This document shows, in pieces, positions 26 to 32,327 of a stretch of DNA of 64,000 nucleotides. Location of the stretch: positions 5,165-69,164 of the IMG/VR virus record IMGVR_UViG_2863404153_000002; one strand, 5' to 3'. Source of the DNA: a virus. Taxonomy: Duplodnaviria; Caudoviricetes. How positions within the stretch are numbered: position 1 is the first letter of the stretch; the number at the start of each line of letters is the position of its first letter. The position numbers and the translations under genes were made by a program. Below the pieces are notes generated by a model. It made no database searches, was not told where the DNA came from, and worked only from the letters and a program-made list of their open reading frames with translations.

Positions 26-313
26 ATGCAGATGGTCTACGACTTCGAGCACGGCGTCACCTACCGCGCCGAGTGCACGTGCGGCGCGTTCAAGGACCAC
101 GACGCCTACGACGAGGCCGCCATCTGGGAGTTCTACCGGCATCGCCCGGCGGGCGACCACAAGGTCAAGGTCCGCGAGATCGGCGGCTTCGCTTTCTCCG
201 ACGTCGGCGACTGGGACTTGGACAAGGTGAACTATCACTTCGCCTACCAGTGCCACGCCGCCTCCTGGGCCATCGCCCAGTACGACGCCGCCCGGAAGGC
301 GGTGGCCGCGTGA
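26..313 (+). CDS. Hypothetical phage protein
   Basis: High-GC codon usage; stop overlaps next GTG (GTGA). Confidence 0.65.
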   Translation: MQMVYDFEHGVTYRAECTCGAFKDHDAYDEAAIWEFYRHRPAGDHKVKVREIGGFAFSDVGDWDLDKVNYHFAYQCHAASWAIAQYDAARKAVAA

Positions 314-762
314 ACGCCGCAGAGTTCAACGCCCTGTACGAGGTCGGTGTCCCGGTCTTCGCGTATCCGGGCGCCCGGCCGGAGGACCACGGTGACGTCA
401 CCCGCCTCGTGACGCGGACTCGGAGCAGGGCGTCCGTCCTCGGGGGCCACACCGACGTGGTCTGGGTGGACGGCTACAGCTCCTGCATCGCTCTCAGCCA
501 CGTCGACCCGGTGTCGGAGGTCGAGTTCAAGGAGGCGCGGGAGGCCGAGACGGCTGCCGCGGTGGCCGAGCTTGGCGCTCTGCCGATGCCTGTCGCCGAG
601 GGGCGGTCGGAGGTGGCCGGCGGGGAGCTTGCCCGGGCGCGCCGGTACATCGCGGCCTTGGAGGCCGCGGCGTGTATCTGCCTTCCGGTGCGGCAGGACG
701 ACGACTACCTGCACGCGGCTGACTGCCCGGTCGCCGCCGCTCAGCTGGCGGTGGCCCGATGA
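310..762 (+). CDS. Hypothetical phage protein
   Basis: GTG start coupled to upstream stop; 3' part of ORF 73..762. Confidence 0.7.
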   Translation: MNAAEFNALYEVGVPVFAYPGARPEDHGDVTRLVTRTRSRASVLGGHTDVVWVDGYSSCIALSHVDPVSEVEFKEAREAETAAAVAELGALPMPVAEGRSEVAGGELARARRYIAALEAAACICLPVRQDDDYLHAADCPVAAAQLAVAR

Positions 763-989
763 CGCTCCCGATCGATCGCTTGGATGTGCCGCTGCCGCAG
801 TTGGTGGCTGATCTGCAGGCGCTGGCCGCCCGCCGGCTTCAGGCGGGTGCGGTGGCCGAGCAGCGGCACCAACTCGACCCGGCCGACGGCGCGTTCGCCG
901 CCCTCGCCTGCGCCTGCCCCAACGGCTGCTCCTGCGCCGCCGACTACCCCGGATGGACCCCTAACACGACCAAGGAGAAGACGTCGTGA
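759..989 (+). CDS. Hypothetical phage protein
   Basis: ATGA/GTGA overlaps at both ends. Confidence 0.6.
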   Translation: MTLPIDRLDVPLPQLVADLQALAARRLQAGAVAEQRHQLDPADGAFAALACACPNGCSCAADYPGWTPNTTKEKTS

Positions 990-1342
990 GGCTCGTCGCC
1001 GAACACCTGCCCGCCCGGCCGCGCAAGGCATCCGCATCCCGGCGCCGACGCCACCACTTCCGGCTCCCGTACCGGCTCCACCAGCACGCTCCGGCCGCCG
1101 CATCGATCCTCCTCGCCCCGGTGTGGACGGACACGCAGGGCCCGCAGGAGCGCGTCTTCGTGGCCCGCGCCCTCGACGCCAACGGTGAGCCCGTGCGTAT
1201 CCCGCCGGGCGGCTCTCGCCAGATCGCATCCCTGCTGCAGGGCGCGTTCCCGGGCGCGGACTGGAACCAGGCCCAGACGTGGCACGCCAAGACGAACCAG
1301 CTCACCACCTGGCGGCAGCAGGAACGGCGGGTGGCGGCATGA
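986..1342 (+). CDS. Hypothetical phage protein
   Basis: Coupled overlaps with both neighbours. Confidence 0.65.
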   Translation: MRLVAEHLPARPRKASASRRRRHHFRLPYRLHQHAPAAASILLAPVWTDTQGPQERVFVARALDANGEPVRIPPGGSRQIASLLQGAFPGADWNQAQTWHAKTNQLTTWRQQERRVAA

Positions 1343-2376
1343 GCGAGTCCTCAAAGATCGAGTGGACAGACGCGACTTGGAATGTCGTCACCGGCTGCGA
1401 GAAGGTGTCGCCCGGCTGCGACAACTGCTATGCCGAGACGTTCGCCGAGCGCTGGCGCGGCATCCCCGGCCACCACTTCGAGACCGGCTTCGACGTCACC
1501 CTCCGCCCCGAGCGGCTGGACATCCCGTTCCGCTGGCGCAAGCCGAAGCGGATCTTCGTAAACAGCATGTCCGACCTGTTCCACAAGGACATCCCCGACT
1601 CGTACATCGCCCAGGTCTTCGCGGTGATGGCCCGTACACCGCAGCACACCTACCAGGTGCTGACGAAGCGCCACGGCCGGATGCGCTCGCTGGTCGGCAG
1701 CCTCATCGACGGCGGTCAGAGTCTCCTTGAGGCCGCGCCCGACGAGGCGACCGCACGGGCCCTGTACGACACCGTCTGGCCGCTTCCGAACGTGTGGTTG
1801 GGCGTGAGCGTCGAGGACCAGAAGCGCGCCAACCTGCGGATCCCGGCTCTCGTCGACACGGCGGCTGCGGTCCGCTTCTTGTCCTGCGAGCCGCTCCTCG
1901 GCCCGCTCGACTTGACCGCGTGGATGCCCAGCGGACATGCCGCGTGGCGCTGCCAGGGACCCGACTGCCGCCGCTTCTACAGCGGTCCGCTGCTGCAGCA
2001 CTGCCCAGACTGCGGGGGCGAAGGCCAATGGACGGGCAGCCACACCGGCAACGGACGCCCGAACGGGCAGCCGATCGGCTGGGTCATCGCGGGCGGCGAG
2101 TCCGGCCGCGGCGCCCGCCCGATGAGCCCTGACTGGGCGCGCAGCATCCGTGACCAGGCCCAGGCTGCGGGCGTGCCCTACCTGTTCAAGCAGTGGGGCG
2201 AGTACGAGCCCACCGGCTACATGGCGATCGGCGCTCGTCAGAAGGGGTGCGTGTTCGTCGGCGATCCGATCGACGACCTCGGCCACCGCTGGGAGATGCG
2301 CCGTGTCGGCAAGGGCAAGGCCGGCCGGGAGTTGGACGGGCGGACCTGGGACGAGTTCCCGGCGGCCGTGGCATGA
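1339..2376 (+). CDS. DUF5131 / phage Gp37-Gp68 family protein (radical-SAM-like Cys motif) with a Zn-ribbon insert
   Basis: SKIEWTDATWN..GCEKVSPGCDNCYA, IFVNSMSDLFH, WVIAGGESG, FKQWG family motifs. Confidence 0.9.
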   Translation: MSESSKIEWTDATWNVVTGCEKVSPGCDNCYAETFAERWRGIPGHHFETGFDVTLRPERLDIPFRWRKPKRIFVNSMSDLFHKDIPDSYIAQVFAVMARTPQHTYQVLTKRHGRMRSLVGSLIDGGQSLLEAAPDEATARALYDTVWPLPNVWLGVSVEDQKRANLRIPALVDTAAAVRFLSCEPLLGPLDLTAWMPSGHAAWRCQGPDCRRFYSGPLLQHCPDCGGEGQWTGSHTGNGRPNGQPIGWVIAGGESGRGARPMSPDWARSIRDQAQAAGVPYLFKQWGEYEPTGYMAIGARQKGCVFVGDPIDDLGHRWEMRRVGKGKAGRELDGRTWDEFPAAVA

Positions 2377-2537
2377 CCGTCCCGCCCGTATCGCCGCGCC
2401 TGTCGCCGACCGCGGGCCTGTTCAACGCACTCGTCCGACTCCTCAACCTCCGCTTGACCGCGCGAGCCCTGGAGCTCGAAGCGCAGATCGCCATCGAAAC
2501 CGCCACCAGCCAGCAGTTGAAGGAGCGAGTCCGGTGA
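2373..2537 (+). CDS. Small hypothetical protein
   Basis: ATGA and GTGA coupling. Confidence 0.5.
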   Translation: MTVPPVSPRLSPTAGLFNALVRLLNLRLTARALELEAQIAIETATSQQLKERVR

Positions 2538-3076: not shown

Positions 3077-4084
3077 GTGACCACGATCAACGCCCACAAG
3101 CTCCAGCGAATGATCAAGCAGATCCGGCCGCACATCAGCGACGACGACACCCTCCCGCCCATCAACGGCATCCGCTTCGAGTGCGACGGCGTCCACATCC
3201 ACGCCCTCGCCACCGACCGCTTCACCTTCGCCGTGGCCCGTGCCAAGGTCCGCGAAGAGACCGACACCTGGACGGCCACCGTCAGCCAAGACGACCTGGG
3301 CTGGTTCACCGCCTGGCTGGAGACCCGCGAGGGCGACACCATCCTCAACCTCGCAGCCACAGGCGACGGACTGGCCGTCACCGACGACCGCGGCACCCTC
3401 GTCGTCCCCGCCGAAGACCACACGTTCCCCAAGTGGCAGAGCCTGTTCCGCGACGCGCTGACGGACGCAGCCACCTCCGGAGACATGGTCAGCGTCGACA
3501 CCAAGATGCTCGGCCGCTGGCAGCACGCCGACACCCACCTCCGCACCTGGCAGACCGCGCCCGAGAAGCCGATCCTCCTCGTCGGCGACGACTTCATCGG
3601 CCTGCAGATGCCCGCCCGCTACAGCGGTGACGCGAAGGACCGGGCCGCAGTGCTCAGCGACTGGTCCGGCACCCTCGGCAAGGCCGGAAAGCCTGCCGAG
3701 ATCACCGTGCCCCCGGCCCCGGGCGCCGTCGCGGAGATGGCGGAGGAGATGCTTCGGCAGACCCTGCGCTCTACATCCGAGATGTTCGGTGCCGACTTCG
3801 ACACCGAGAAGGGCCGTGGAGCCTTCAACGCCTGGGTGCACTCCGGGATCTACGCCTGGTCCGCCTACCGGCTCCTCGAAGCGCTGAAGAAGGCCGACCC
3901 CGACCTGGCCGAGACGACCGTCCGCGACCTCAACGAGCAGCTGGAGTCCGGAGAGCTCGGCGAGTGGGCGTGGGACGCGGCCGAAGCCGCCGGCCACAAC
4001 CCGCAGAAGTGGCACGACGACTACGAGGCCCACAAACAGAAGCTCTCCGAGAAGCAGGCGGCCAAGGCCGAACCGGCCGCCTGA
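3077..4084 (+). CDS. DNA polymerase III beta-clamp-like (DnaN N-terminal) phage protein with a helical C-terminal extension
   Basis: DDTLPPINGIRFE..ALATDRFTFAV and FPKWQSLF resemble DnaN; RBS GGAGG upstream. Confidence 0.75.
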   Translation: MTTINAHKLQRMIKQIRPHISDDDTLPPINGIRFECDGVHIHALATDRFTFAVARAKVREETDTWTATVSQDDLGWFTAWLETREGDTILNLAATGDGLAVTDDRGTLVVPAEDHTFPKWQSLFRDALTDAATSGDMVSVDTKMLGRWQHADTHLRTWQTAPEKPILLVGDDFIGLQMPARYSGDAKDRAAVLSDWSGTLGKAGKPAEITVPPAPGAVAEMAEEMLRQTLRSTSEMFGADFDTEKGRGAFNAWVHSGIYAWSAYRLLEALKKADPDLAETTVRDLNEQLESGELGEWAWDAAEAAGHNPQKWHDDYEAHKQKLSEKQAAKAEPAA

Positions 4085-6570: not shown

Positions 6571-6836
6571 CCGCGCCGACACCGGCCGAGGGCAAGTGCG
6601 CCCGCTGCAAGCAGACCCGCCCGCTCTTCGCCCGCAAGCCGGACCACGACTGCATCGACACCCTCGGCCGCGTCGACCTCATCGAAGCCGCCCGACTCAT
6701 CGCGGAGATCGAAGACCAGGGCGACCACTGGTGCACCCGCCGCATCGAAGGCCTGCCGCCCCTCAGCTTCTGCGTCCGCTGCTACGACGCCGACGCCGCC
6801 GAAGAAGCCGCACACGTGAAGGAGCACCAGCTGTGA
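6567..6836 (+). CDS. Cys-rich hypothetical protein
   Basis: GTGA coupling. Confidence 0.65.
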   Translation: MTAPTPAEGKCARCKQTRPLFARKPDHDCIDTLGRVDLIEAARLIAEIEDQGDHWCTRRIEGLPPLSFCVRCYDADAAEEAAHVKEHQL

Positions 6837-7204
6837 CGAAGCGTCTGTCTCTCGCCGAGCGCCTGGCCGCCGACGACAAGAACCTCCTCCTCGACGAGAT
6901 CGTGAAGCAGGACGACTGGTCCCTCTTCCTCGTCCAGCAGGCCGTCCTCCACTTCGGCCTCCGCAAGCCCGAGTTCTCGTGCAACGACCTGCGCGACGTG
7001 CTCCCCGAGCTCGGTCACGGCTACCTCGGCGCCGCCATCAACGCCCTGCGCATGAGCGGGATCATCGCCCACACCGACCGCATGGTGCCGTCCACGCAGG
7101 CCAACACCCACGGGCATCGCATCGCGGTCTGGACCCTCACCGTCAAGGGCCGGCAGATCGCGGCCAAGCGCCGTGCCGCCCGCGCCCGGAAGGCGGCGGC
7201 GTGA
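6833..7204 (+). CDS. Putative winged-helix DNA-binding protein
   Basis: FSCNDLRD..YLGAAINALR..WTLT pattern; coupled start. Confidence 0.65.
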   Translation: MTKRLSLAERLAADDKNLLLDEIVKQDDWSLFLVQQAVLHFGLRKPEFSCNDLRDVLPELGHGYLGAAINALRMSGIIAHTDRMVPSTQANTHGHRIAVWTLTVKGRQIAAKRRAARARKAAA

Positions 7205-7371
7205 TGGGCCGCCTCATCACCGCCCTCCCCGCCCTGCTCTACGCCGTCGCCGGCATCTGGGCGATCGCCCACGCCATCCGCGGCGACCGGAACGTCACCC
7301 GCCGAGACATCCGCCGCATCGAAGCCTTCGCCAACCACCCCGCCAACCGGAAGGAGAAGCCGCAGCCATGA
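7204..7371 (+). CDS. Small membrane protein
   Basis: N-terminal hydrophobic helix; TGATG overlap. Confidence 0.55.
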   Translation: MGRLITALPALLYAVAGIWAIAHAIRGDRNVTRRDIRRIEAFANHPANRKEKPQP

Positions 7372-8231
7372 GCACCCGCCCCCTGCCCGCCCACGGAACC
7401 ACAGCCCGCGGCTACGGAAGCCCCGGCCGCCGAGCCCGCTGCCACTGCGACCCCTGCCGGGAAGCCCGCAACCGACACCAAAAGAAGATCCGCATCGACC
7501 GCGAACTGGGACGCAGCCCGTTCACCAGCCCCGACAAAGCGCAAGCCCATCTGCAAACCCTTCACAAAACCATGGGCTGGGACAGCCTTGAGGCCGCTAC
7601 CGGCGTCCGGTTCAGCAACCTCGTCACGATCTACCAGGGCAAGCGCACGAAGATCCGCCACGAAACCGAGGCGAAGATCCTCGCCGTAGGCATCCCCGCC
7701 AAAGGCGACCCCGGCCAGTACGTCGACGCAACCGGCAGCACCCGCCGCCTGCAGGCACTCTCCTGCATCGGACACTCCTACGCCGCCATCTGCCGCGCCG
7801 CAGACACCTGCCCCAACCGGGTCGTCTCCATCGCCAACGGTCGGCAGCCCACCATCCGCCGCGACCTCGCCGAACGGATCAACGCCGCCTACGAGCAACT
7901 GGCATTCAACCCGCCGGCCAGGAACAAGCACACCACCCGGACCCGCAACGTGGCGCACAGCAAAGGCTGGCGGGATCCGCAGTGGTGGGAGGACTACGGC
8001 CGCATCGACGACCCGTCCTTCAACCCGGCCTCCGTCGTCGTCGACGAGCTCAACTTCCGCAGGCGGGCCCAGCTCCGCCGCGAGGAGATCATCCACCTCG
8101 CCTGGCACGGCGACACCCCCGAGCAGATCCTCGCCCGCCTCAACGGTGAAGTGTCCATCTCCACCATCCGCCAGATCGTCCAAGAGTGGCGCACCGGGCA
8201 GAAGCGCGGCCGCAAGGCGGTGGCCGCGTGA
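7368..8231 (+). CDS. Zn-finger/HTH phage protein (paralog of 10152..10931)
   Basis: HG..Y..CHC..C, VDATGSTRRLQAL, IDDP motifs. Confidence 0.8.
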   Translation: MSTRPLPAHGTTARGYGSPGRRARCHCDPCREARNRHQKKIRIDRELGRSPFTSPDKAQAHLQTLHKTMGWDSLEAATGVRFSNLVTIYQGKRTKIRHETEAKILAVGIPAKGDPGQYVDATGSTRRLQALSCIGHSYAAICRAADTCPNRVVSIANGRQPTIRRDLAERINAAYEQLAFNPPARNKHTTRTRNVAHSKGWRDPQWWEDYGRIDDPSFNPASVVVDELNFRRRAQLRREEIIHLAWHGDTPEQILARLNGEVSISTIRQIVQEWRTGQKRGRKAVAA

Positions 8232-8485
8232 GCCGCTACGACTGGATGGCCGACGCCCGCTGCGCCCAGACCGACCCCGACCTGTGGGCAGCCGACCGGC
8301 CCGGCAACACCTACCGCGACGCCCGCCAGATCTGCGGACGCTGCCCCGTCAAGCCCGAATGCGAAGCCCACGCGGGCGCCCTCTCCGGGCAGGACGACAT
8401 CCGCCTCCACGGCATGTGGGCCGGACTCGCCCCACGGAAGCGCAAAACCACCCGCCACCCCGACACCGAAAGGACCGCCGCCTGA
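8228..8485 (+). CDS. whiB: WhiB-family Fe-S transcription regulator
   Basis: C..(DPDLW)..CxxCPVKPEC..GMWAG four-Cys motif. Confidence 0.9.
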   Translation: MSRYDWMADARCAQTDPDLWAADRPGNTYRDARQICGRCPVKPECEAHAGALSGQDDIRLHGMWAGLAPRKRKTTRHPDTERTAA

Positions 8486-10155
8486 TGGCCCGCCCCTCCA
8501 AGAAGCTGCCCCGCACGGCTGCGCACCGGCCGGCCGTCAAGCGCCGCCGCTTCCGCCACGACGACCTCATCGCGGTCGATCTCTTCTCGGGGTTCGGTGG
8601 ATTGACGCAGGGCATCGAGATGGCCGGGTTCACGACGATCATGGCGGCGAACCACAACGCGTACAAAGTCGAGGTCCACGAGGCGAACCACCCGAACGCC
8701 GAGCACTGGATCGCCGACCTGGTCGACCCCGAAGCCGCGGACTACCACTCCGCCCGGGACCTCCCCGCCGCTGACCTGCTCGTTGCGGGAGTCAGCTGCG
8801 TCAACCACAGCCAGGCCAACACGGTGAAGGCGTATCAGCAGGGGCTGACGCTGTTCGAACTGGAGGACCCGGAGTTCGAGGCCCGGGTCACCAAGTCGGA
8901 GCGGGACCGGGCCACGGCGAACTGCGTCCTGCACTACGCGCAGAAGCACCGGCCGCGAATGATCCTCGTCGAGTGCACCACGGGACTGCAGTCGTGGGGC
9001 CCCGCCCTGCCGGACCGCCCGAACGTGGGCGACGGCAGCACCTACCGGTGGTGGCTCCAGCAGTTCGAACTGCTCGACTACAACCACAAGGTGCTGTTCC
9101 TGAACAGCCAGTTCTTCGGGGTGCCGCAGTCAAGGAACCGCGGCTACTGGGTGTTCGTCCACAAGTCCCTCCCGATGCCAGACCTGGAACACCGGCCGGT
9201 GTCGCGCTGCCACCACTGCGACAAGAACGTCGAGGCGGTCTGGACGTGGAAGACCGGACCCACGCCGACCGGCACGGTGGAGTACGGCAAGCAGTACAAC
9301 TACCGGTGCCCCAGCTGCCGTCGCGAGGTCGTCCCGCCGATGACGCCGTCGCTGGCCGCGCTCGACCTGACCGACCTCGGAACACGGCTCGGCGACAAGC
9401 CGATCAAGACGTTCAAGGACAAGAAGACCGGCGAGATCTTCAGAGGCCCGCTCGCCCGGTCGTCAATGGAACGCGCGGAGCGCTGCCGCCAGAGGTTCGC
9501 CACCTCGCCCGCCATCCTCATGCCGGCGAAGGGCGTGCACGGATCCGAGCGACTCCTGCTGCAGCCGATGGCGACGCAGACCAGCCAGCAGGAGACGGCG
9601 ATTCTGTCGACCGGGCCGGTCGCGCATCCGCTGTGGGCCGAGTCCGCGGTCGCACTCGCCGTGGACAACTACCAGGGCGCACCACGTAGCGCCGCCGAGC
9701 CGCTGCCCACCCAGGTCGGCTCCGAGACGCTCGCCGTGGTGTCCTCCGGGGTCGTCCCGTACCGGAAGCACACCGTGCCCACGACGCACGGCGAGGCGAT
9801 GCCGACGTTCACCTCGGAGCAGATCCCGGGGGTGCTCTCAGCCGCCGGAACCGTCACCCACGGCATGGCCGAATCGCAGATCTCGGCCCTCTGGCGGTCC
9901 ACCCTCTCGGAGCTACCGCTCGAAGACTGCTTCTACCGAATGATGCGGGAGTACGAGATCGGCCGCGGCTGCGGCTTCGACGTCGACTTCCCCGGTTATA
10001 AAGGCACCTTCGTCGTCTGGGGCTCCGCCCGCAACCAGGTCGACGGATTCGGCAACGCTGTATCAAGGCAGGTCGGAGCCTGGATCGGGACCCGACTGCG
10101 GGCCGTCATCCACACCCCGCAGGACCGCGGCCCCGAACTGGCGGTGGCCGCGTGA
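8485..10155 (+). CDS. DNA cytosine-C5 methyltransferase with variant catalytic motifs
   Basis: Motif I DLFSGFGG, GVSC in place of PC, FFGVPQSRNR, terminal GNAV. Confidence 0.85.
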   Translation: MARPSKKLPRTAAHRPAVKRRRFRHDDLIAVDLFSGFGGLTQGIEMAGFTTIMAANHNAYKVEVHEANHPNAEHWIADLVDPEAADYHSARDLPAADLLVAGVSCVNHSQANTVKAYQQGLTLFELEDPEFEARVTKSERDRATANCVLHYAQKHRPRMILVECTTGLQSWGPALPDRPNVGDGSTYRWWLQQFELLDYNHKVLFLNSQFFGVPQSRNRGYWVFVHKSLPMPDLEHRPVSRCHHCDKNVEAVWTWKTGPTPTGTVEYGKQYNYRCPSCRREVVPPMTPSLAALDLTDLGTRLGDKPIKTFKDKKTGEIFRGPLARSSMERAERCRQRFATSPAILMPAKGVHGSERLLLQPMATQTSQQETAILSTGPVAHPLWAESAVALAVDNYQGAPRSAAEPLPTQVGSETLAVVSSGVVPYRKHTVPTTHGEAMPTFTSEQIPGVLSAAGTVTHGMAESQISALWRSTLSELPLEDCFYRMMREYEIGRGCGFDVDFPGYKGTFVVWGSARNQVDGFGNAVSRQVGAWIGTRLRAVIHTPQDRGPELAVAA

Positions 10156-10931
10156 CCGCCCGCCCGCACGGCAACGCGAAGTACCACCTCGAACACTGCC
10201 GCTGCCCCACCTGTACCCAGGCAGCCCGCGACTACGAGAACAACCGCTCCCGGGCCATCGCTTACGGTCGCTGGCAGCCATTCGTGGACGCCGAGCCCGT
10301 CCGCCAGCACGTCCGGGCGCTCGGCGAGTTCGGCATCGGCTGGATACGCACCGCGCGCCTCGCCGGCGTCTCCACCGGCGGCGTATCCAAGCTGCTGTAC
10401 GGCGACCGCCCCCGCGGACTCGCTCCTTCACGGCGGGTCCGCCCCGAGACCGCGATGAAACTCCTCGCGGTGGAGCCCACGCTCGTCAACCTCGGCGACC
10501 GGACCGCCGTCGACGGCACTGGGGCACGCCGCCGACTGCAAGCCCTTGTGTGCGCGGGCTGGACACAGTCCGAACTGGCCCGCCGAACGGGCATGAACCG
10601 CGCCAACTTCGCAAAGACCATCGTCAGCGGCCTCGTCGAGGTGGCCACGCTGAAGACGGCGCGTCGTCTGTACGACGAACTATGGCGCGGCGATCCCGTC
10701 GAAGCTGGAGTCCCATCGTGGCGGGCGGCAGCAGCCCGGCAGATCGCTACGTCCCGAGGCTGGGCCCCTATCGGGGCGTGGGATGACGACCGCATCGACG
10801 ACCCGGACGCATTCCCCGACTGGACCGGCTGGTGCGGCACACCCAAAGGCCGATCAATCCACTACCGCATCGGTGTCGCCGTCTGCGCGCCATGCCGAGA
10901 TGCATGCGCCAAACAGCGAGCCGCCGCGTGA
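10152..10931 (+). CDS. Zn-finger/HTH phage protein (paralog of 7368..8231)
   Basis: HG..Y..CRC..C, VDGTGARRRLQAL, WDDDRIDDP. Confidence 0.8.
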   Translation: MTARPHGNAKYHLEHCRCPTCTQAARDYENNRSRAIAYGRWQPFVDAEPVRQHVRALGEFGIGWIRTARLAGVSTGGVSKLLYGDRPRGLAPSRRVRPETAMKLLAVEPTLVNLGDRTAVDGTGARRRLQALVCAGWTQSELARRTGMNRANFAKTIVSGLVEVATLKTARRLYDELWRGDPVEAGVPSWRAAAARQIATSRGWAPIGAWDDDRIDDPDAFPDWTGWCGTPKGRSIHYRIGVAVCAPCRDACAKQRAAA

Positions 10932-11103: not shown

Positions 11104-11325
11104 TCAGTCCGAGTCGGCAGCCGGCCTCTTGCGGCGCACGATCCTCGGCTTGATCTTGGGCATCTCGATGCCCTTGGCCTTGCAGTACGAGCGGACGCGC
11201 GAGTGGACGTGTCGGCGCAGGTCGTCGGTGCGCGTGGTGCCTTCCTCCGCGCACGCCTGGTCGTAGAGATCCCACATCTCGTCATCGATGCGGATCATGC
11301 GACCCGGCGTCCCTCTCGTGGTCAT
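11104..11325 (-). CDS. Ribbon-helix-helix-like small repressor
   Basis: RMIRIDDEMWDLYDQAC..RTDDLRRHV pattern; divergent from replication operon. Confidence 0.65.
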   Translation of the reverse strand: MTTRGTPGRMIRIDDEMWDLYDQACAEEGTTRTDDLRRHVHSRVRSYCKAKGIEMPKIKPRIVRRKRPAADSD

Positions 11326-11351
11326 GGCGACAGCGTAGCTGACCGTGCAGG

Positions 11352-11430
11352 AGCAATACACCCCGCCTCAGTTAAGTGTGTTGCCAATGTATTGCTTGTG
11401 CCTACACACCCGAGGGTAGAGTGGAGGCAC
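11352..11430. promoter_or_regulatory. Divergent control region with inverted repeats and a candidate TAGAGT -10 for the replication operon
   Basis: Perfect 9-bp IR AGCAATACA (11352) / TGTATTGCT (11388); GTGCCT/AGGCAC IR; locally AT-rich. Confidence 0.5.
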
Positions 11431-11526: not shown

Positions 11527-12486
11527 GTGAGCACTGAGGCCGTCACCTGGGCCATGGACCACGCGCCCATGCCACGCACCGAGAAGGGCAAGCCGGACAC
11601 CACCGCCCGGCACGTCCTCCAGGCGCTCGCTGAGCACGCCAGTCCGACCGGCACCGACGCGCACCCCTCCGTGCTCCGCATCCAATACCGCACTGGCTAC
11701 GACCGGGCCACCGTCCAACGCGCACTGCGCCGACTGGAGAAGGCCGGACTGATCGTCAAGGACGGCACCAGGGAATCGCGCACCCGCTACAAGCTGGCGA
11801 TGGCACTGCGCCGCCCGGCCACGGACTGGAGCGACCTTGAGAGGGAGGAAGACGAGTTCCGGGCCGCGGCAGCCGAGAGGAAGCGCCGTTCCCGAGCGAA
11901 GAGTGTCACGCACGCAGAATCCGTGACCGTCACGGACGGAGAAGGCGTGACGGTCACGCACGCAGAATCCGTGACCGGCGATGTCACGCACGCAAAGTCC
12001 GTCCGTCACGCACTTAAAGTCCGTTCGTCACGCACGGAACGCAGCCCTAACCACCAACAACCGTCAGACAACCAACTACTAAAAGACTCTTCTCCCGCAG
12101 CCGACTCGACCGAGCCACAGGCATCAGCCGCCCCGGTCCAGACCAAAAGCGGCAGCGAGAAGACGGATCACCACCTCGCAGCCTTCGGCGCCTTCTGGAG
12201 CAACTACCCGAAGAAGCGCGACCGCGAGGCAGCCAAGAAGGCGTGGATCGCCGCCATCGAGCGCGGCGTAGATCCCAAGCACATCGTCGACGCCGCCCAG
12301 GCCTACGCCCGCGAGCGCTTCGGCCAGGACCCCAAGTACACGAAGTTCCCGGCCAAGTGGCTCGACAACGGCTGCTACGACGACGAGCCCGACCCGCAGC
12401 CGGGCCCCCAGTTGCGTGCCGTGGCCGGCGGCTATCAGCCCTACCGCAATCCCACCGACCAATCCGTCTACGACGAGGACTTCTGA
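11527..12486 (+). CDS. Phage replication initiator (N-terminal HTH, lambda O-like)
   Basis: HTH (PSVLRIQYRTGYDRATVQRALRRLE), C-terminal FWSNYPKKRD..PAKWL..YDDE; upstream of DnaC/DnaB. Confidence 0.85.
   Translation: MSTEAVTWAMDHAPMPRTEKGKPDTTARHVLQALAEHASPTGTDAHPSVLRIQYRTGYDRATVQRALRRLEKAGLIVKDGTRESRTRYKLAMALRRPATDWSDLEREEDEFRAAAAERKRRSRAKSVTHAESVTVTDGEGVTVTHAESVTGDVTHAKSVRHALKVRSSRTERSPNHQQPSDNQLLKDSSPAADSTEPQASAAPVQTKSGSEKTDHHLAAFGAFWSNYPKKRDREAAKKAWIAAIERGVDPKHIVDAAQAYARERFGQDPKYTKFPAKWLDNGCYDDEPDPQPGPQLRAVAGGYQPYRNPTDQSVYDEDF
11905..12090. repeat. Six iteron-like GTCACG(C/G)AC repeats plus an A-rich tract: candidate replication origin
   Basis: Copies at 11905, 11929, 11953, 11983, 12005, 12027; first three are GTCAC-N13-GTGAC. 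Confidence 0.75.
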
Positions 12487-12487: not shown

Positions 12488-13198
12488 ATGCAGTACATCC
12501 CGCCCGCGAACCTGCGAGGCCACGACATCACCCCGCTGCTCGCCAACCGCGGCCTCGACCCGGACTGGATCCAGCTGCACGACTTCGACCCACACACCCC
12601 GCAGAACGTCGCCCGCTACACCTACGCCGAGACCGCCGCGAAGATCCCGTTCCACTACCGGTCCGCCGTCCCGACACTGCCGCAACTGCGGGCCTGGATC
12701 GACACCCTCGTCGCCACGGCGAAGCAAGCCCAGGCGGAGCGGGGCGGACCCATCGCCAGCATCACCCACGGCCCGTCCATCCTGCTGCTGGGCGTGACCG
12801 GCGTCGGCAAGACCCACGAGGCCTACGGGGCGATGCGGGAACTGGCCGTGTCCGGGGTGTACGGGCAATGGCAGGTGACCACCGCCGCCGACCTGTACGC
12901 CGCCCTGCGCCCGCGTCACGGCGTCGACTCCGAGGCCGAGTTCCGCAAGTACCGCGACGCCCGCCTCCTCCTCGTCGACGACCTGGGGGCGGAGCGTAAA
13001 CCGACCGAGTTCACCGAAGAGATCAACTTCCGGCTCATCAACCACCGGTACGAGCACCACCTGCCGACGGTCATGACATCCAACATGCGGCCGAAGGAGC
13101 TCACCGAGCGTCTCGGCGACCGCGTGGTCGGCCGGCTCCGCGAGATGTGCGAGCGGATCCCCATGGAAGGCCACGACCGCCGGAGGAACGCCGCGTGA
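12488..13198 (+). CDS. DnaC/IstB-like AAA+ helicase loader
   Basis: Walker A GVTGVGKT, Walker B LLLVDDLG, TSN, DRVVGRL. Confidence 0.88.
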   Translation: MQYIPPANLRGHDITPLLANRGLDPDWIQLHDFDPHTPQNVARYTYAETAAKIPFHYRSAVPTLPQLRAWIDTLVATAKQAQAERGGPIASITHGPSILLLGVTGVGKTHEAYGAMRELAVSGVYGQWQVTTAADLYAALRPRHGVDSEAEFRKYRDARLLLVDDLGAERKPTEFTEEINFRLINHRYEHHLPTVMTSNMRPKELTERLGDRVVGRLREMCERIPMEGHDRRRNAA

Positions 13199-19104: not shown

Positions 19105-19518
19105 CTACTCGGCCAGGGCGTCGTCGAGGTACTCCTGCACCGGCTCGAACAGCCCATACGGCACGTAATCGGGGATCTCATCGAGGCTGACCCAGGCAAC
19201 GGCGTCCAGCTCGTCGGCGTCCGCGACGTGCGCCTCGCCCCCGACGACCTTGCACGCCGTGTAGCTCATGAGCCGCTTCGTCTTCGGGTGGACCCGCTCG
19301 CCGATCAGGTGCGACGCAGTGACGACGAGACCGGTCTCCTCGATCGTCTCCCGCACCGCCGCGGCCTCGGCAGTCTCACCGTCCTCGATCGCGCCAGCCG
19401 GAAACTGCCAGCTGAGCTCGCCCTCCTTCACGCGGCGGCGCACCATGAGCACCTTGCTTCCGTCCGTGATGATCGCGGCGGAGATGCCGGGCTTCTCGGT
19501 CGTGGTCTCGGTCGTCAT
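19105..19518 (-). CDS. Nudix hydrolase (type found in actinomycete conjugative elements, pSAM2 Pif-like)
   Basis: Nudix box GAIEDGETAEAAAVRETIEETG. Confidence 0.92.
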   Translation of the reverse strand: MTTETTTEKPGISAAIITDGSKVLMVRRRVKEGELSWQFPAGAIEDGETAEAAAVRETIEETGLVVTASHLIGERVHPKTKRLMSYTACKVVGGEAHVADADELDAVAWVSLDEIPDYVPYGLFEPVQEYLDDALAE

Positions 19519-20135
19519 GCGGCAACCTCCTCGAACGGTGGATAGTTCGAGATCTGGTGTGCGCGTTGTCCGGAGAATCCCAGCCGTTCGCCAACCTCGC
19601 GCCAGGTGAGCCCGCGGCCCTTCAGTCTGAGCACGATCTCTCGCGCCGCCGCCTTCTGTAGGAAGACGTGTCGCTTCTCTGCTTCGCAGACGGCCTTGTA
19701 TAGCTCCAGGGGATCGGCGATCGCTGCCAGAGTGGAGTCGAGGGTGGCGGCGAACTCCATGAGCGCGTCGAAAGCCGGGTGGTGATTAGGATCCGGCGGT
19801 GTAGCGAAAGCCTTAGGTTTCGACGTGGGCTTGGACTTCACTTTCCTCAGACTGATCTTTGGGCGGCTCCAGGGTTCGCCCTCGACAGCCCACTGGATGA
19901 GCCGGACCGGGTCACGGCGAAAGGTGAACCATTCGCCGTGCGATCGGAACTCCTTGAAGTAGCGATGAAGCTGGGTTTCCAGCTCACGGCCACCCGGGCA
20001 GGTCCAGAAGGCTTCGAGAGGCACGGGCGACATCCGCTGAATGTCGGCAAGCCTCTTCTGGAGGTTCCCTGTCGTCCCGATCTTCACGGTGTTGCTGCCG
20101 GGCGTACCGAGTATGTAGACGACTTCTCCGGTCAC
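19515..20135 (-). CDS. GIY-YIG (T5orf172-like) nuclease domain fused to a C-terminal HTH
   Basis: VYIL..VKIGTT..KRL..LETQLH..GEWF; C-terminal LTWREVGERLGFSGQRAHQI. Confidence 0.8.
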   Translation of the reverse strand: MTGEVVYILGTPGSNTVKIGTTGNLQKRLADIQRMSPVPLEAFWTCPGGRELETQLHRYFKEFRSHGEWFTFRRDPVRLIQWAVEGEPWSRPKISLRKVKSKPTSKPKAFATPPDPNHHPAFDALMEFAATLDSTLAAIADPLELYKAVCEAEKRHVFLQKAAAREIVLRLKGRGLTWREVGERLGFSGQRAHQISNYPPFEEVAA

Positions 20136-21622
20136 TTGGCCCCCTGCCCGTAGCTCCAGGTGTTGCCCGTGCCGCGGTACTCGGAGACGGGAATCGGCTG
20201 AACGCCTTCGCGCATCCGTGAGCGGTACAGCATGCCGTGCAGGTGGTCGACTTCGTGGGCGACGAGTCGGGCCATGCCCCTCTCGAAGATGGTGATGCGC
20301 TGCTGCCCGTCGATGTCGGTGTGCTCCACGCTGATCGCGAGGGGGCGGGGGACCTTGCCGCGGACGTCGAAGAAGCTCAGGCAGCCTTCGTACTGCTCGT
20401 CAGTCTCTCGTGACTCCTCGACGATGCGCGGGTTGAACAGGGTGATGGATTCACCGTCGGGGGACCGGACGATCGCGGCGGCCCGGTCGATGCCGATCTG
20501 TGTCGCTGCCACGCCCATTCCCTTGCCGAAGACGTGCACGGTGGAGGCCCGTTCGGCTGCGGAGATCAGTTCGGCGACGACCCGGCGCGCGTCCTCGGCC
20601 TCGCCAGGCAGGTCGAACGGTCGCGCGGTCTTGGTCAGGATCGGGTCGCCCTCCTGGACAATGCCGACCGCGCTCATCCTCTCGCTCGCGGTCGCTTCGG
20701 ACTCCAGTACGTGCAATGCATCCTCCTGGTTTGGGCGGGTTCGGAACTTCCATTCAAGCCGATACCGGGCGTGCAGCGGAGGGTCTTCAGTCGACCAGGA
20801 GAAGACGCGACGGCCGTCCTCCTCGGTGCGGCGGACCGCGGTACGGAACGGCATCGCCTCAGCGGTCATGCTCGTCTCCGTGCCCCACACGATCGGGTCC
20901 AGGTCGGCGGGGAAGTCGAGGCGAACGCTCATGCGCTGCGTCGGCAGACGAACCGCCCGCTGGAACCACGAGCCCCACTTCTCGTCCCCGACGGTGTAGC
21001 TGTACTCCAACCACACCGACTCGCCCGGGTACAGCGGGTACTGCCCGAAGATCAGCCACAACTCCTTGAACGCGTCGCGGTCGTGCTTCACCCGCCACGT
21101 CAGCGGCTCGCCGTCGATCGACGCGCTGAGGCCGATCTCCTCCCACGTCAGCGGGTTCTCGCGGTAGTGCTGATTCGACCGCTCGGGGTCTCCCGGATAA
21201 CGGTCGACGGAGATCCGGACCAGATAGCGGGTCACCGGGTCCGGGCTGTCGTTGTAGAGCCGGCGGCGCTGGGTGGCCCGGTACGTGCGGCCGTCGTAGC
21301 AGAGCGTCGTGTCCTCGTGCTCGACGATCAGGCTCGTCGCGTGGGACTCGTCGCCGTTCGGCGCCGGGTGAGTGGCTGGTGCCCTGCCGGTCGCCTCCAG
21401 GTCGCGGAAGGCTCGCCGCAGCGCGCCGCCAGCCCGGAGGGTGTCGTCGGCCTGCCGGGCGAACGCGGCGGACGGGGCCAGCTGCCCGCCCTCGACCTTG
21501 GACACGTAGGACGGCGTGTATCCGACCTTGCTGGCGAGCGCTGACTGCGAGAGGCCCCGCACGTCACGCCAGTACTTCAGCTCAGCGACGAACGCTTCTG
21601 CTGCTGCTTGCTGCTCCGGCAT
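20132..21622 (-). CDS. XRE-family HTH + uncharacterised beta-rich domain + peptide deformylase fusion
   Basis: N-terminal GLSQSALASKVGYTPSYVSKVE; PDF motifs GMGVAATQ, EGCLS, HEVDH all present. Confidence 0.9.
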   Translation of the reverse strand: MPEQQAAAEAFVAELKYWRDVRGLSQSALASKVGYTPSYVSKVEGGQLAPSAAFARQADDTLRAGGALRRAFRDLEATGRAPATHPAPNGDESHATSLIVEHEDTTLCYDGRTYRATQRRRLYNDSPDPVTRYLVRISVDRYPGDPERSNQHYRENPLTWEEIGLSASIDGEPLTWRVKHDRDAFKELWLIFGQYPLYPGESVWLEYSYTVGDEKWGSWFQRAVRLPTQRMSVRLDFPADLDPIVWGTETSMTAEAMPFRTAVRRTEEDGRRVFSWSTEDPPLHARYRLEWKFRTRPNQEDALHVLESEATASERMSAVGIVQEGDPILTKTARPFDLPGEAEDARRVVAELISAAERASTVHVFGKGMGVAATQIGIDRAAAIVRSPDGESITLFNPRIVEESRETDEQYEGCLSFFDVRGKVPRPLAISVEHTDIDGQQRITIFERGMARLVAHEVDHLHGMLYRSRMREGVQPIPVSEYRGTGNTWSYGQGAK

Positions 21623-26356: not shown

Positions 26357-28356
26357 CGACCGAGATGCCCCCCGAGTTCCCCGCCGACTGGGACCTCGAC
26401 AAGGTGATCCCCTCGGCCGGCGAGCTGCACGTGCCCGACGACCTGTCCGGCGAGGACATCGCGCCCGGCATCGTCGCCCCCTACGAGCCGCGGCCGGCCG
26501 TCCTGTCGAAGACCGGCTCCGCGACGATGGTCGCCGCGGCGGCCACCGGCCGAGCCTGCGGACTCACCGCCCGCTGGTTCTTCACCGGCGCCAGCGCCGT
26601 CGGATTCCTCGGCTGGCGCTACGTCCGCGCCCACGACCTCCAAGAAGTCCTCGGCGGCATGTCGAAGGGCTCCGACTGGAACAAGGTCGACATCGTCCGC
26701 AAGAAGCGGTGGCGATTCCTCGGCTGGGCGGCCGGCATCACCGCGGGCCTCAACCTCGCCGGCTGGTGGGCGCTCGTGAAGTACGCAGGCATGACCGCAG
26801 CCGACTGGTCCTGGAAGATCCCCCCCGCCCTGACCGCCGCCGCTGCGGTCGCCGCCGTCACCCTCTACGGCCGCTACCGCGCGAACAGCCCCGGCATCGC
26901 CCCGGAGATGCTCGTCGCCGATCACGACAACCCGGAATCCGACGAGCCGTTCCCGCTGGCCCTCGCCACGTCCCCGAGCATGGTTGAGGACTGTGTGTCC
27001 AGGGCGCTCGCCTGGGAGGGCATCGGCACCCGGCAGATCCGGGCGCTCGGTTTCCGCGGGAAGTTCTGGGAGATCGACGTGATCCTCAAGGGTTCGACTC
27101 CCGGCAAGGTCAACGCGGTCTGTGACCAGCTGGACGCCCACTTCAACATCAAGCAGGGCGGCACCCTCATCGACCCTGACCCTGCCGAGTCCGCGCACAT
27201 CATGTTGCGCCTCGTCACCGGCAACCCGTTCGACGACATGCCCAAGCCGACCGTGCACGCCCCGAACAGCCTGGACATCTCCGACCCGCACAACTTCGGC
27301 CGCTGCATGGACGGCAGCCCCCTCGACCTCGTCCTCGAAGGGCAGCGCATCCTCGTCATCGGCGTGTCCGGTTCCGCTAAGTCCACCGGCGTCCTCCGTG
27401 ACCTGGCCGAGGTCATCACCGCCTGCCACAACGCCATCGCCATCGAGATGGACCCGGTCAAGGATGGGCTGCGCGAGTTCGAAGGTGTCATGGCCGTCCC
27501 CCCGATCAGGGGTACCAGGGCCTGCGAGCAGTGGCTTGAGTACCTGGTCAAGATGGCTGGCGGTCGCAACGTCATCCGCAACCGGCTCGGTATGGGCGAC
27601 ACGTGGGTTGCCACTAAGGAGCGCCCCGCCATCTTCGCGCTCGTCGACGAGTTCATCTTCCTCAGTCAGCGCGCGAAGGAGCTGTTCATCGAACTGCTCC
27701 GCATCGGCAAGCAGTCCGGGATCTACGTGGTGGCCGCCGGGCAGGACGCCACCTCTGACGCCATGGGCGACGCCATCGCCGACACCTTCACGACCCGCAT
27801 CATGCTCGCTGCCCGCTGGGACGACATCCGGCTCGTTCTCGGGCAGGGGGCTGCCGCGAAGGGCTTCCGCCCCGACCGTCTCGTCCCCGCCTTGAACAGG
27901 GACATCAAGAACGACGCCGGCCAGTCGTATATCAAGGGTCCCGGCCTGGACCGGCCGCTTCTGTACGGGTGGAACGAGCACAGCAACCACGGGATCAAGC
28001 AAGCCGTCGCCGACCGCAAGGCCGCGGGCCGGCCCTGGTTTGACCGCGACACCCTCGCCACCGCCGGTCTCCTCCACCTCGCCGATGGCGGGACCGGGGA
28101 GCGGATCGTTGGCGACCGGCAGATCGCGGCGGACGCCGTGGTGGTCATGGCCGAGGCCGGCGTGGACCGGATGAAGACCGAGACCCTGGCCGAGCGGCTC
28201 GTCGACCACGCGCCCGACGTCTATGCCGACCTGACTGCCGCCGAGCTGCGCGCTCGGCTGAAGGAAGCCGGAGCGGGCTCACCGGTGCAGCTGGGGGAGT
28301 GCGAGGGCGAGCGGAACCCCCGCGGCTACAAGCTCGAAGCGCTGACCGTCTTGTAG
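26353..28356 (+). CDS. traB: TraB/TraSA-type FtsK-SpoIIIE conjugative DNA translocase
   Basis: N-terminal TM segments, Walker A-like GVSGSAKS, Walker B FALVDEF, AGQ motif, C-terminal wHTH ending RGY. Confidence 0.85.
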   Translation: MTTEMPPEFPADWDLDKVIPSAGELHVPDDLSGEDIAPGIVAPYEPRPAVLSKTGSATMVAAAATGRACGLTARWFFTGASAVGFLGWRYVRAHDLQEVLGGMSKGSDWNKVDIVRKKRWRFLGWAAGITAGLNLAGWWALVKYAGMTAADWSWKIPPALTAAAAVAAVTLYGRYRANSPGIAPEMLVADHDNPESDEPFPLALATSPSMVEDCVSRALAWEGIGTRQIRALGFRGKFWEIDVILKGSTPGKVNAVCDQLDAHFNIKQGGTLIDPDPAESAHIMLRLVTGNPFDDMPKPTVHAPNSLDISDPHNFGRCMDGSPLDLVLEGQRILVIGVSGSAKSTGVLRDLAEVITACHNAIAIEMDPVKDGLREFEGVMAVPPIRGTRACEQWLEYLVKMAGGRNVIRNRLGMGDTWVATKERPAIFALVDEFIFLSQRAKELFIELLRIGKQSGIYVVAAGQDATSDAMGDAIADTFTTRIMLAARWDDIRLVLGQGAAAKGFRPDRLVPALNRDIKNDAGQSYIKGPGLDRPLLYGWNEHSNHGIKQAVADRKAAGRPWFDRDTLATAGLLHLADGGTGERIVGDRQIAADAVVVMAEAGVDRMKTETLAERLVDHAPDVYADLTAAELRARLKEAGAGSPVQLGECEGERNPRGYKLEALTVL

Positions 28357-28367
28357 GCATTCGTCCC

Positions 28368-28565: not shown

Positions 28566-29333
28566 ATGCCGCCCGCGAAGCGCACCCCGGCCCGCCGCGC
28601 CACCGTCACCAAGGCGCGAAAGACGCCAGCCCGCAAACACCCCGCCCGCCGCGTCAAGATCCCCCGCAAGGGCCCCCTCCACGCCCAAATCGGCGCCCGT
28701 ATGGTCCTCTTCGCCGTCTCCCACCTCGACACCCACGGCGACATCGTCCGATCCCGCAAAGACGCCGCAATCCTCCGCGCCACCCACGAAGGCTGCCCCA
28801 CCTGCCACGGCAACGGACAAATCTTCACCAAAGGCAAAGACGGCTCCTTCACCGGCTCCAAGCCCTGCCCCGCCAAGCCCACCAAACAGAAGGTGTCCAA
28901 GTGGGCCGTGTACAAGGCGTCCCGGTTCGGCGCCGAAAAGAACACCGGCCTCGTCGGCTGGGCCTGCCCCTGCGGCAAGAAGGAGAAGCCCCGCTACCGC
29001 GACGCCAAGGAAGCCACCAAAGCCCTCCGCGTACACGAGCGGAAGAAGCACGGCGGGAAATCCGTCGGCGGAGCCTGGTACGCCCAAGCCGCCGAAGGCG
29101 CCGCGCAGCCGGCCATGCAGCCGGTGCCGTCCAAGATCGTCACTGACTCCGGCCTCACCGACGACCAGTGGATCAAAAAGAACAAGAAGATCCACCCCGG
29201 CAAGGCCATAGCCAAAGGCCTCTGCTGGATGTGCGCCGGAAACGGCTCCCTCCACGCCGCCTTCGGCAACCAGCAGATCCTCACCGTCTGCCCCGAATGC
29301 CAGGGCAACGGCAAAGCCCCTCAAGCCGCCTGA
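28566..29333 (+). CDS. Basic Zn-finger protein (DnaJ-like CxxCxGxG repeats)
   Basis: CPTCHGNG, CWMCAGNG, CPECQGNG; RBS GAGGAG. Confidence 0.75.
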   Translation: MPPAKRTPARRATVTKARKTPARKHPARRVKIPRKGPLHAQIGARMVLFAVSHLDTHGDIVRSRKDAAILRATHEGCPTCHGNGQIFTKGKDGSFTGSKPCPAKPTKQKVSKWAVYKASRFGAEKNTGLVGWACPCGKKEKPRYRDAKEATKALRVHERKKHGGKSVGGAWYAQAAEGAAQPAMQPVPSKIVTDSGLTDDQWIKKNKKIHPGKAIAKGLCWMCAGNGSLHAAFGNQQILTVCPECQGNGKAPQAA

Positions 29334-29354
29334 TCCCACTAGGAGAACCTGATC

Positions 29355-29843: not shown

Positions 29844-29857
29844 CGAAAGGACCAGCC

Positions 29858-30172: not shown

Positions 30173-30200
30173 CTCTCAACCAACTCGACAGGAGCCCGGC

Positions 30201-30873: not shown

Positions 30874-30929
30874 GCGTGGCCCGCGCCACTCACCCCCGCC
30901 TGACCGCCCGACCCGACAGGATGGACCAC

Positions 30930-31175
30930 ATGCGCTACCGCGACCCCGACTGCACCTGCGAGATCGAATACCCCGGCGCCCACCGCCGCTGGTGCGACCA
31001 CTGCCGCACCGAAGGCCCCCTCCCCGGCAGCCTCGCCGACCCCGAATGGGAGCAGCGGAGCAACGACCCGGCCGTCCTCCAGGAAGCCCACCAGCGGATC
31101 GCCGACACCCACCCCGACCTCGCGCACCGGCTGCTCATCGCACTGGACCACCTGAACTTGGCCCAGCCCGACTGA
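30930..31175 (+). CDS. Cys-rich hypothetical protein
   Basis: CxC..CxxC; start uncertain (30921 or 30930). Confidence 0.55.
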   Translation: MRYRDPDCTCEIEYPGAHRRWCDHCRTEGPLPGSLADPEWEQRSNDPAVLQEAHQRIADTHPDLAHRLLIALDHLNLAQPD

Positions 31176-31308
31176 CCCCGCCCCCCCAAGGCCCGCTCCC
31201 TTCCCGGGACGCGGCCGTCACTGTGCCATTGGCCCGGACTGTAAACCCCGTAGTGCACCATTGGCTCAAGCATCACTCTGCTTCCCGCACCGCCCCGAGG
31301 AGCCGACC

Positions 31309-31959
31309 ATGCACGACAACGCCGCCGCCCTGGACGAATACGACTGGCCGGTCTGCCCCTGCGGACGCCAACTCCGAAACGACGAACTCGGACGCCAAGC
31401 CTGCCGACTCTGCCAGGAACACACCGACCAGTCACTCCGCCAGCTCCCCGGCCCCCGAGGTTTGTACGCCCAACTCGCCACCCGGCTAGTCCCCGGGCGC
31501 GGGGGTGACGGCCCGGTCGTGTCCGTCTCCCGCACGGCGCCACTGCCCCTCCGCCTCGAACCCCTCAGCCTCATGGCCCGAGGCGGCGTCGTCACCATCC
31601 TCCAGACCTGGCTGATCGACTGGCACGAACACCTCGGCTGGCGGCACCCGCGCTGGAAGGGTGATCTGCAGCAGCAACTCGACCAAGCCGTCAAGGCACT
31701 GCGCACCAATCTCGAATGGGCAGCAACCGAACACCCCGCGTTCGCAGACTTCGCCCACGAGGTCAGCAGCACGGTCCGCCAGTGCGAACGCCAGATCACC
31801 GGCGAGCGGACCGAACGCCCGATCGCCGTAGCCTGCCCGTGCGGAACCGTACTGAGGATCACCGTGTCCACCCCCGGCGCTCGGTGCCGAGGCTGCACCA
31901 CCCAGTACGCGCGCACCGAGATCCTTGATCTACCTCTCGCCACACGAACGGCTGCATAG
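31309..31959 (+). CDS. Zn-binding phage protein (paralog of 18394..19053), possible late regulator
   Basis: CxC..CxxC N-terminal, APLPLR motif, C-terminal CPC..CRGC. Confidence 0.78.
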   Translation: MHDNAAALDEYDWPVCPCGRQLRNDELGRQACRLCQEHTDQSLRQLPGPRGLYAQLATRLVPGRGGDGPVVSVSRTAPLPLRLEPLSLMARGGVVTILQTWLIDWHEHLGWRHPRWKGDLQQQLDQAVKALRTNLEWAATEHPAFADFAHEVSSTVRQCERQITGERTERPIAVACPCGTVLRITVSTPGARCRGCTTQYARTEILDLPLATRTAA

Positions 31960-32081
31960 CACTGGACTTGCCCACCTGATCACCTGTATGTCACAGTGGC
32001 AGCAGACGGAACTACGTGTGTCCGCAACTACTTCAGCCCCCAGCTTCCGGCCGGGGGCTTTCTGTATTCCAGGGGGCGGAC

Positions 32082-32327
32082 GTGAGCGTCACCGACCTGT
32101 ATCCGGAAGACCTCGTCTTCGAGCATGAAGCCACCGCCGCAACCGGCGTACCGGGTCCGGTGATTCGGCAATGGGCGCGGCGAGGCAAGGTCCGCAAGTT
32201 TCAGGGACGCCCCGACCAGCTCTCCGGCCAGGGCCACGAGTACAAGACCATGTACGCGCTCCCGGACGTCAAGGAGCGTGCTGCCACCTACCGGCCCACG
32301 CCCCAACGAGCACCAAAGGCCGCATAG
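32082..32327 (+). CDS. Small HTH (MerR/Xis-like) protein
   Basis: EATAATGVPGPVIRQWARRGKV; GTG start. Confidence 0.65.
   Translation: MSVTDLYPEDLVFEHEATAATGVPGPVIRQWARRGKVRKFQGRPDQLSGQGHEYKTMYALPDVKERAATYRPTPQRAPKAA

Follow-up and report, generated by a model that had tools for sequence, protein, structure and literature searches.

Previously, a C-terminal Ala-Ala dipeptide has been shown to act in Streptomyces as a degron for ClpXP or ClpP1P2. Sigma-AntA is degraded by ClpXP only when it ends in Ala-Ala, 67 of its 71 orthologues keep this ending, and its replacement by Asp-Asp stabilises the protein both in vitro and in vivo (PMC7142297). Likewise, the levels of ClgR and Lon rise when Ala-Ala is exchanged for Asp-Asp, and PopR is a substrate of ClpP1P2 (PMC9775585). 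In the integration-dependent immunity of the actinobacteriophages BPs, Brujita, and Charlie, C-terminal tags on Rep and Int give a response to host proteases, e.g., ClpXP (PMC3694055). The present study concerns the 64,000-nucleotide window covering bases 5165-69164 of the 69,164-bp single-contig virus record IMGVR_UViG_2863404153_000002, classed as a complete provirus, in which 19 of 75 called non-structural genes, and none of 26 structural and lysis genes, end in Ala-Ala (AA). A literature search retrieved single-protein cases and no account in which the early proteins of a phage carry Ala-Ala tails genome-wide. What is already known, therefore, is the AA degron on single proteins (transfer-messenger RNA (tmRNA)-tagged products, sigma-AntA, ClgR, and a few phage regulators); what is new is the scale and uniformity of one minimal tag borne by dozens of unrelated early proteins, absent from the virion, and in excess of the host proteome.

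The closest likeness is to the ssrA tag and the other C-motif 1 degrons of ClpX, which place Ala-Ala at the extreme C-terminus of a variable tail (...LAA-COOH). The tmRNA tag in Streptomyces chromosomes ends in ...FALAA, and the phage tails over-represent the small or hydrophobic residues Ala and Val at position -3. In contrast to the ssrA peptide, which is added during translation, the phage tail is encoded in the genome on native proteins; only its last two residues are conserved, position -3 frequently holds Gly or a charged residue, and nothing like the adaptor-binding part for SspB can be seen. Sigma-AntA, ClgR, PopR, and Lon share with the tagged phage proteins the host genus and the minimal motif, and many in both groups are transcription regulators; the conservation of AA among sigma-AntA orthologues (67/71) compares with 80-97% in the phage families. 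However, those are single host proteins, whereas the candidate phage degron involves a fifth to a quarter of the early proteome and dozens of unrelated families. Integration-dependent immunity also relies on C-terminal degradation tags in actinobacteriophage proteins, but on two proteins and with attP lying within the repressor gene, whereas this provirus tags dozens of others; unlike in that system, its tyrosine integrase (genome 509-1930, minus strand) ends in LLEVTV and bears no AA tag. Unstable early proteins are also familiar from classical phages: lambda O is degraded by ClpXP, CII and CIII by FtsH, and Xis and N by Lon, and ClpX acts on the Mu repressor and MuA. There, too, early regulators and replication initiators are short-lived through host AAA+ proteases, but each has its own signal and protease, where here one uniform two-residue signal sits on many unrelated proteins.

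The provirus has a guanine-plus-cytosine (GC) content of 69-70%. Its left end carries the tyrosine integrase and an excisionase-like protein with DUF6397 and helix-turn-helix (HTH) domains, followed by a long rightward early region and then by a terminase-to-tail-to-lysis block at 35.4-59.2 kb of the window, which served as the contrast class:

35421-59179, plus strand: block for packaging, head, tail, and lysis, with no Ala-Ala end in any of its 26 called genes

Its large terminase shares 70% identity with the corresponding proteins of the Streptomyces phages SF1, SF3, and VWB. A megablast comparison of the early region with 50,697 phage records gave no useful DNA-level match to any annotated phage, and tblastn with the DnaC-like helicase loader gave distant matches only. 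Genes were called by codon-usage log-odds with a dynamic-programming choice of non-overlapping open reading frames (ORFs), a procedure blind to C-termini, in which the called C-terminus depends solely on the choice of stop and frame. This caller, our own, returned 101 genes in the 69-kb provirus; GenBank coding sequences of VWB and SV1 and database proteins came from elsewhere.

The first-pass annotation had listed 18 ORF ends and proposed that Ala-Ala tails are confined to non-structural proteins. All 18 do read Ala-Ala-stop, and the independent caller accepted 16 of them as genes; of the less certain ends, 14974 is plausible as that of a 58-amino-acid gene, and the ORF at 17412-17828, with its poor coding score, is doubtful. 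The contrast with the structural and lysis genes (window 35400-59200), at 19/75 versus 0/26 between classes set by map position (Fisher p = 0.0027), is stronger than first stated, and AA was also missing from the ends of ORFs in those stretches of the late block where the caller placed no gene. The notion of a phage-wide programme, on the other hand, was overstated: the tails mark a defined subset of about 20-25% of the early proteins, whose genes are concentrated toward the promoter-proximal side of the operon. Of the called genes, 14 of 39 were AA-ended within genome 1.9-25.3 kb, 4 of 25 in the next 14 kb, 1 of 9 in the right arm, and 0 of 26 in the late block.

In this 70% GC genome, no residue is commoner than alanine (13.5%), and high-GC genomes yield many spurious ORFs, so that chance, alanine richness, or faulty gene calling might be suspected behind these tails. 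The data leave this explanation practically no chance of being right, and we treat it as already refuted. The AA dipeptide has an internal frequency of 2.3% in the called proteins, against which 19 of 75 has a binomial p of ~1e-14 (9e-15), and the alanine excess is limited to the last positions (33% at -1, 32% at -2, 21% at -3, and 17% at -4), with background values further in. On forty 20-kb pieces (800 kb in total) of two complete Streptomyces chromosomes, the same caller found AA at the end of 16 of 647 proteins. Since the same caller gives this value of 2.5% on host DNA, neither GC-driven alanine richness nor caller bias accounts for the excess. The same tails also appear in gene calls made by others, namely the GenBank coding sequences of VWB and SV1 and third-party database proteins. 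The enrichment persists after alanine content, host background, and gene overlaps are taken into account; neither this computational check nor the other one named by the first-pass annotation, on the keeping of AA in homologues, refuted its proposal.

Conservation among relatives carries the argument further. When IMG/VR was scanned, with the methylase, the DnaB helicase, and the capsid protein as queries, 111 loci were retrieved; those above 66% GC encode 2,729 distinct proteins, of which 599 (22%) have an AA end. Of the 1,605 families obtained by clustering, 236 have AA as their majority tail, and 62 have Ala-Ser, which ranks second. Families of at least five members are distributed bimodally, at about 0% or at 80-100% AA tails; 41 have less than 5% and 16 have 60% or more. 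For AA-tailed queries from the provirus, 207 of 241 pooled homologues (86%) end in AA, versus 38 of 253 (15%) for other early queries and 1 of 69 (1.4%) for late ones; these counts ignore kinship among homologues, a problem lessened by the family-level counts and by the use of representatives at 50% identity. Such representatives come from a HMMER scan with the 7368-8231 protein against 1.84 billion cluster representatives, where 120 of the 150 best matches, mutually less than 50% identical and gene-called by others, end in AA. Untagged families behave differently, with AA in 2/68 DnaB homologues, 0/24 of a PDDEXK protein, and 0/23 of an HTH_36 protein.

Within AA families, the residue entropy is 0.45 bits at -1 and 0.62 bits at -2, versus 2.2-2.5 bits at -3 to -12; other families show ~2 bits at every C-terminal position. 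In alignments, homologous tails are of unequal length and rich in insertions and deletions, and still end in AA. The stop codon directly follows the dipeptide in all tails, leaving a free C-terminus, and stop positions are conserved in homologues. All Ala codon pairs are found inside single AA families. Because only -1 and -2 are conserved and the Ala codons vary synonymously, selection acts on the amino acids of the tail and not on the DNA. The dipeptide is thus strongly kept, as the first-pass annotation had suggested should be checked in homologues, while adjacent tail residues and codons drift.

These observations also bear on a nucleotide-level explanation, by which AA would be a by-product of an embedded Shine-Dalgarno sequence, a spacer, a downstream start, or the context of UGA termination. 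AAG GCG GTG GCC GCG TGA recurs at several coupled junctions and reads as a near-consensus Shine-Dalgarno sequence (AAGGnGGTG) with a 5-nucleotide spacer and a GTG start, and GCA and GCG are over-represented as the final Ala codon, which is what ATGA and GTGA overlaps demand. The synonymous use of all Ala codon pairs inside single families speaks against such a constraint, as does the position of the tags. Among early genes, AA ends occur in 8 of 26 with a stop/start overlap (ATGA, GTGA, or TGATG) and in 11 of 49 uncoupled ones (p = 1.6e-8), the latter including operon ends and TAG stops; the claim that coupling alone is insufficient is therefore borne out. In the 2,729 genes of the related loci, an overlap makes no difference to the AA rate, which is 26% where there is one and 24% where 26-400 nucleotides separate a gene from the next start. 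Late genes share the overlaps and the TGA stops, yet none of 7 coupled late genes ends in AA, and host genes show no enrichment. The Shine-Dalgarno-spacer-start motif is real, but with the AA rates the same outside overlaps we rejected it as the cause; a by-product of this kind is largely refuted and very unlikely.

The early-late contrast extends to other phages. In five whole related proviruses, AA ends 2 of 121 late proteins, late being pre-defined as the 22-kb block downstream of the terminase, versus 87 of 418 others (p = 1e-8). Their structural modules differ, four of the five having another terminase lineage (39-62% identity), and in these records most tagged genes are grouped within those 17-20 kb of the early operon that lie closest to the integrase/immunity end. 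In GenBank annotation, the counts are 10/54 early versus 2/26 late for the isolate VWB and 8/31 early versus 0/22 late for SV1. The pattern is absent from phiC31 (1/29, the sole one being the integrase), from R4 (3/59 versus 3/23), and from the right arm of the mycobacteriophage BPs (2/33). The annotated Int and Rep of BPs do not literally end in AA, and BPs was unusable as a positive control. Thus, the AA trait is widespread yet lineage-specific. Two isolated cases lie outside the early-gene pattern: the serine integrase of phiC31 (38438-40264), which ends in EDVAA, and the head maturation protease of VWB (26918-27721), which ends in DIPAA. SF1, the closest isolate by terminase, was left out of the contrast because early genes are all but missing from its GenBank record (NC_028807.1), which holds two complete terminase-portal-capsid-tail modules in tandem and looks chimeric or mis-assembled.

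We consider it probable, by analogy with the Streptomyces substrates described above, that the AA tail is a host-Clp degron that would keep a chosen subset of early proteins short-lived. A minimal ssrA-like degron, Ala-Ala-COOH, would be borne by a defined subset of non-structural proteins: putative Cro/CI-type and WhiB regulators, sigma-like proteins, the DnaC-like loader, a clamp-like protein, C5 methylases, nucleases, and many small proteins without assigned function. The reader would be a host AAA+ protease, most likely ClpX with ClpP1P2, because the same ending is recognised on tmRNA-tagged proteins and natural Streptomyces substrates; a clpP1-clpP2-clpX cluster is present in the Streptomyces host genome. 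Being intrinsically short-lived, the tagged proteins would have an activity that closely tracks transcription, fades once the early operon is shut off, and is cleared from a cell turning lysogen. Virion and lysis proteins must accumulate and would for that reason be untagged. By class, the tagged proteins are regulators that bind DNA and enzymes that act on it, the kinds of proteins that phages are known to keep unstable, as with lambda O, CII, Xis, and N. In the relatives, AA families include three C5-methylase families, DpdA, HNH nucleases, a P22 Ant-like protein, WhiB, Cro/CI-type HTH, and GerE/sigma-r4 proteins, the loader, and the clamp, and untagged families include DnaB, exonucleases, GntR regulators, a recombination directionality factor, HIT proteins, and antitoxins.

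Conservation of the tail attests to selection and is silent on the reader, so the label could serve another reader or purpose: ClpC1/ClpP, FtsH, or Lon, ClpX as a remodelling or disassembly chaperone (cf. MuA), an unrecognised phage factor, or the titration of ClpXP by decoys. In E. coli, ClpAP, FtsH, and Lon likewise act on proteins bearing the ssrA tag. Unfoldases disassemble complexes of the type represented by the loader and the clamp-like protein, and at least 20 co-expressed tagged proteins could compete for ClpX. Nevertheless, the tagged proteins are too heterogeneous for a single remodelling function, and a domain search among the provirus proteins found no phage-encoded ClpP or Clp-type AAA domain as a candidate. 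Furthermore, the sole experimentally defined reader of C-terminal AA in Streptomyces is Clp, through ClpX and ClpP1P2 (PMC7142297, PMC9775585). Overall, a different reader or purpose seems unlikely, though it is the most serious of the alternatives.

Several points weigh against the host-Clp degron. With families weighted equally, position -3 is Ala in 18%, Val in 12%, Leu in 6%, Gly in 11%, Glu in 11%, Asp in 7%, and Arg in 7%; it is only mildly ssrA-like, Ala and Val together making 30% versus 20% expected, and Glu, Gly, Asp, and Arg are common, so that a hydrophobic residue is not strictly required there. AlphaFold models give weak support for exposed tails: in the predicted loader, the per-residue confidence score (pLDDT) drops to 68 over the last six residues, and the 6833-7204 protein is modelled as a helix/beta-hairpin core with a long C-terminal helix that the tail ends at a pLDDT of 78. 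The background rate comes from two Streptomyces genomes and not from the actual host of the provirus, and the early and late classes follow map position, not expression data. Finally, the related temperate Streptomyces phages phiC31 and R4 do without the AA pattern.

The AA-tailed set of the provirus comprises 19 called genes and two further ORFs. Within the window these are:

1-313, plus strand: 3' portion of an early gene whose start lies 412 nucleotides upstream of the window; phrog_4657; tail RKAVAA
986-1342, plus strand: small early protein, phrog_11833; tail ERRVAA; two homologues end in VA and MP
3077-4084, plus strand: DNA polymerase III beta clamp-related protein; tail AEPAA; AA in 4/5 homologues
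6833-7204, plus strand: 123-amino-acid protein; tail RKAAA; AA in 20/21 homologues, with differing tail lengths
7368-8231, plus strand: HTH_23 / phrog_1590 protein; tail RKAVAA; AA in 33/35 homologues from the related loci
8228-8485, plus strand: WhiB-family regulator; tail ERTAA; AA in 6/8 homologues
8485-10155, plus strand: C-5 cytosine DNA methylase; tail LAVAA; AA in 29/35 homologues
10152-10931, plus strand: paralogue of 7368-8231; tail QRAAA; uncoupled, with a convergent gene next; AA in 38/40 homologues
12488-13198, plus strand: DnaC/IstB-like helicase loader; tail RRRNAA; AA in 44/53 homologues
14798-14974, plus strand: probable 58-amino-acid gene, not picked by the caller; its ATG overlaps the upstream stop (ATGA); tail PRTAA; the sole homologue ends in NAA
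17412-17828, plus strand: possible membrane protein, uncertain (coding score -8), filling a gap with 4-nucleotide overlaps on both sides; tail RKDAA; no homologues in the homologue comparison
18394-19053, plus strand: phrog_1467 DNA-binding-like protein; tail RRAAA; operon end, uncoupled; AA in 3/3 homologues
19515-20135, minus strand: protein with T5orf172/MUG113 domain and sigma-70 region 4; tail EEVAA
23530-23769, plus strand: 79-amino-acid protein; tail YPAAA; uncoupled; AA in 3/3 homologues
28566-29333, plus strand: DnaJ-type CXXCXGXG zinc finger protein; tail APQAA; uncoupled
31309-31959, plus strand: phrog_1467 paralogue; tail TRTAA, TAG stop; uncoupled; AA in 10/12 homologues
32082-32327, plus strand: 81-amino-acid protein; tail APKAA, TAG stop; uncoupled; AA in 1/2 homologues
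63132-63311, minus strand: 59-amino-acid right-arm protein; tail VTEAA; AA in 2/2 homologues

Upstream of the window lie three more:

genome 1951-2394, minus strand: AA-tailed gene beside int, without a family match; ends in AMAA
genome 3519-3803: AA-tailed gene
genome 4145-4510: AA-tailed gene

Homologues of the loader have a conserved G.DRRR motif, then 2-5 variable residues ending in AA. The genome holds two AA-tailed paralogue pairs, 7368-8231 with 10152-10931 (HTH_23/phrog_1590) and 18394-19053 with 31309-31959 (phrog_1467), the first of which flanks the WhiB and methylase genes. The gene at 14577-14801 (plus strand), followed by the AA-tailed 14798-14974, ends in GPTP in the provirus and in AA in 22 of 36 homologues, an example of tail loss or turnover within a family. 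A frameshift fusing 14577-14801 to 14732-14974 was considered and discarded: homologues of the first are ~90 amino acids long, not ~130, and the second has its own ATG on the stop of the first.

Other features of the provirus were noted alongside. The early region, otherwise rightward, contains a minus-strand island of 20132-21622, 19515-20135, and 19105-19518. Its 20132-21622 gene encodes a 496-amino-acid protein in which an XRE-type HTH (HTH_31) is fused to a peptide deformylase domain; next comes the tagged T5orf172/MUG113 and sigma-70 region 4 protein. Phages do not usually carry an HTH-deformylase fusion, which may act as a regulator or represent a moron (accessory gene) or defence gene. 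Two untagged families have conserved tails of another kind: the HTH_36 family (window 11527-12486, plus strand) ends in acidic plus aromatic or aliphatic residues (DEDF, EDL, WD) that recall SSB-type C-terminal tips, and a small minus-strand family (window 11104-11361) ends in DSD, SDD, or SES. Both may represent other C-terminal interaction motifs. Near the provirus end, ARAGORN reports at window 63738-63834 (minus strand) a transfer RNA (tRNA)-like element with a four-base anticodon loop (cggc), which may be the remnant of a tRNA attachment site.

Taken together, it is about an even call whether several temperate Streptomyces phage lineages, a clade of more than 100 proviruses together with VWB and SV1, run a post-translational timing programme in which AA-COOH on a fifth to a quarter of the early proteins, from dozens of unrelated families, would let host ClpXP erase the early proteome continuously, sharpening the early-late switch and ridding cells on the way to lysogeny of regulatory and DNA-active proteins. 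The idea is directly testable, since VWB and SV1 are cultured phages that can be used on S. venezuelae, and Streptomyces ClpXP1P2 has already been reconstituted. If it is true, native short degrons would become available for Streptomyces synthetic biology, and a simple sequence rule would predict transient phage proteins, aiding the annotation of early proteins without assigned function and studies of how lysogeny is established. Selection has kept the tag throughout a very large radiation of Streptomyces phages, in which protein turnover would then constitute a programmed layer of temporal control, comparable to transcriptional cascades.

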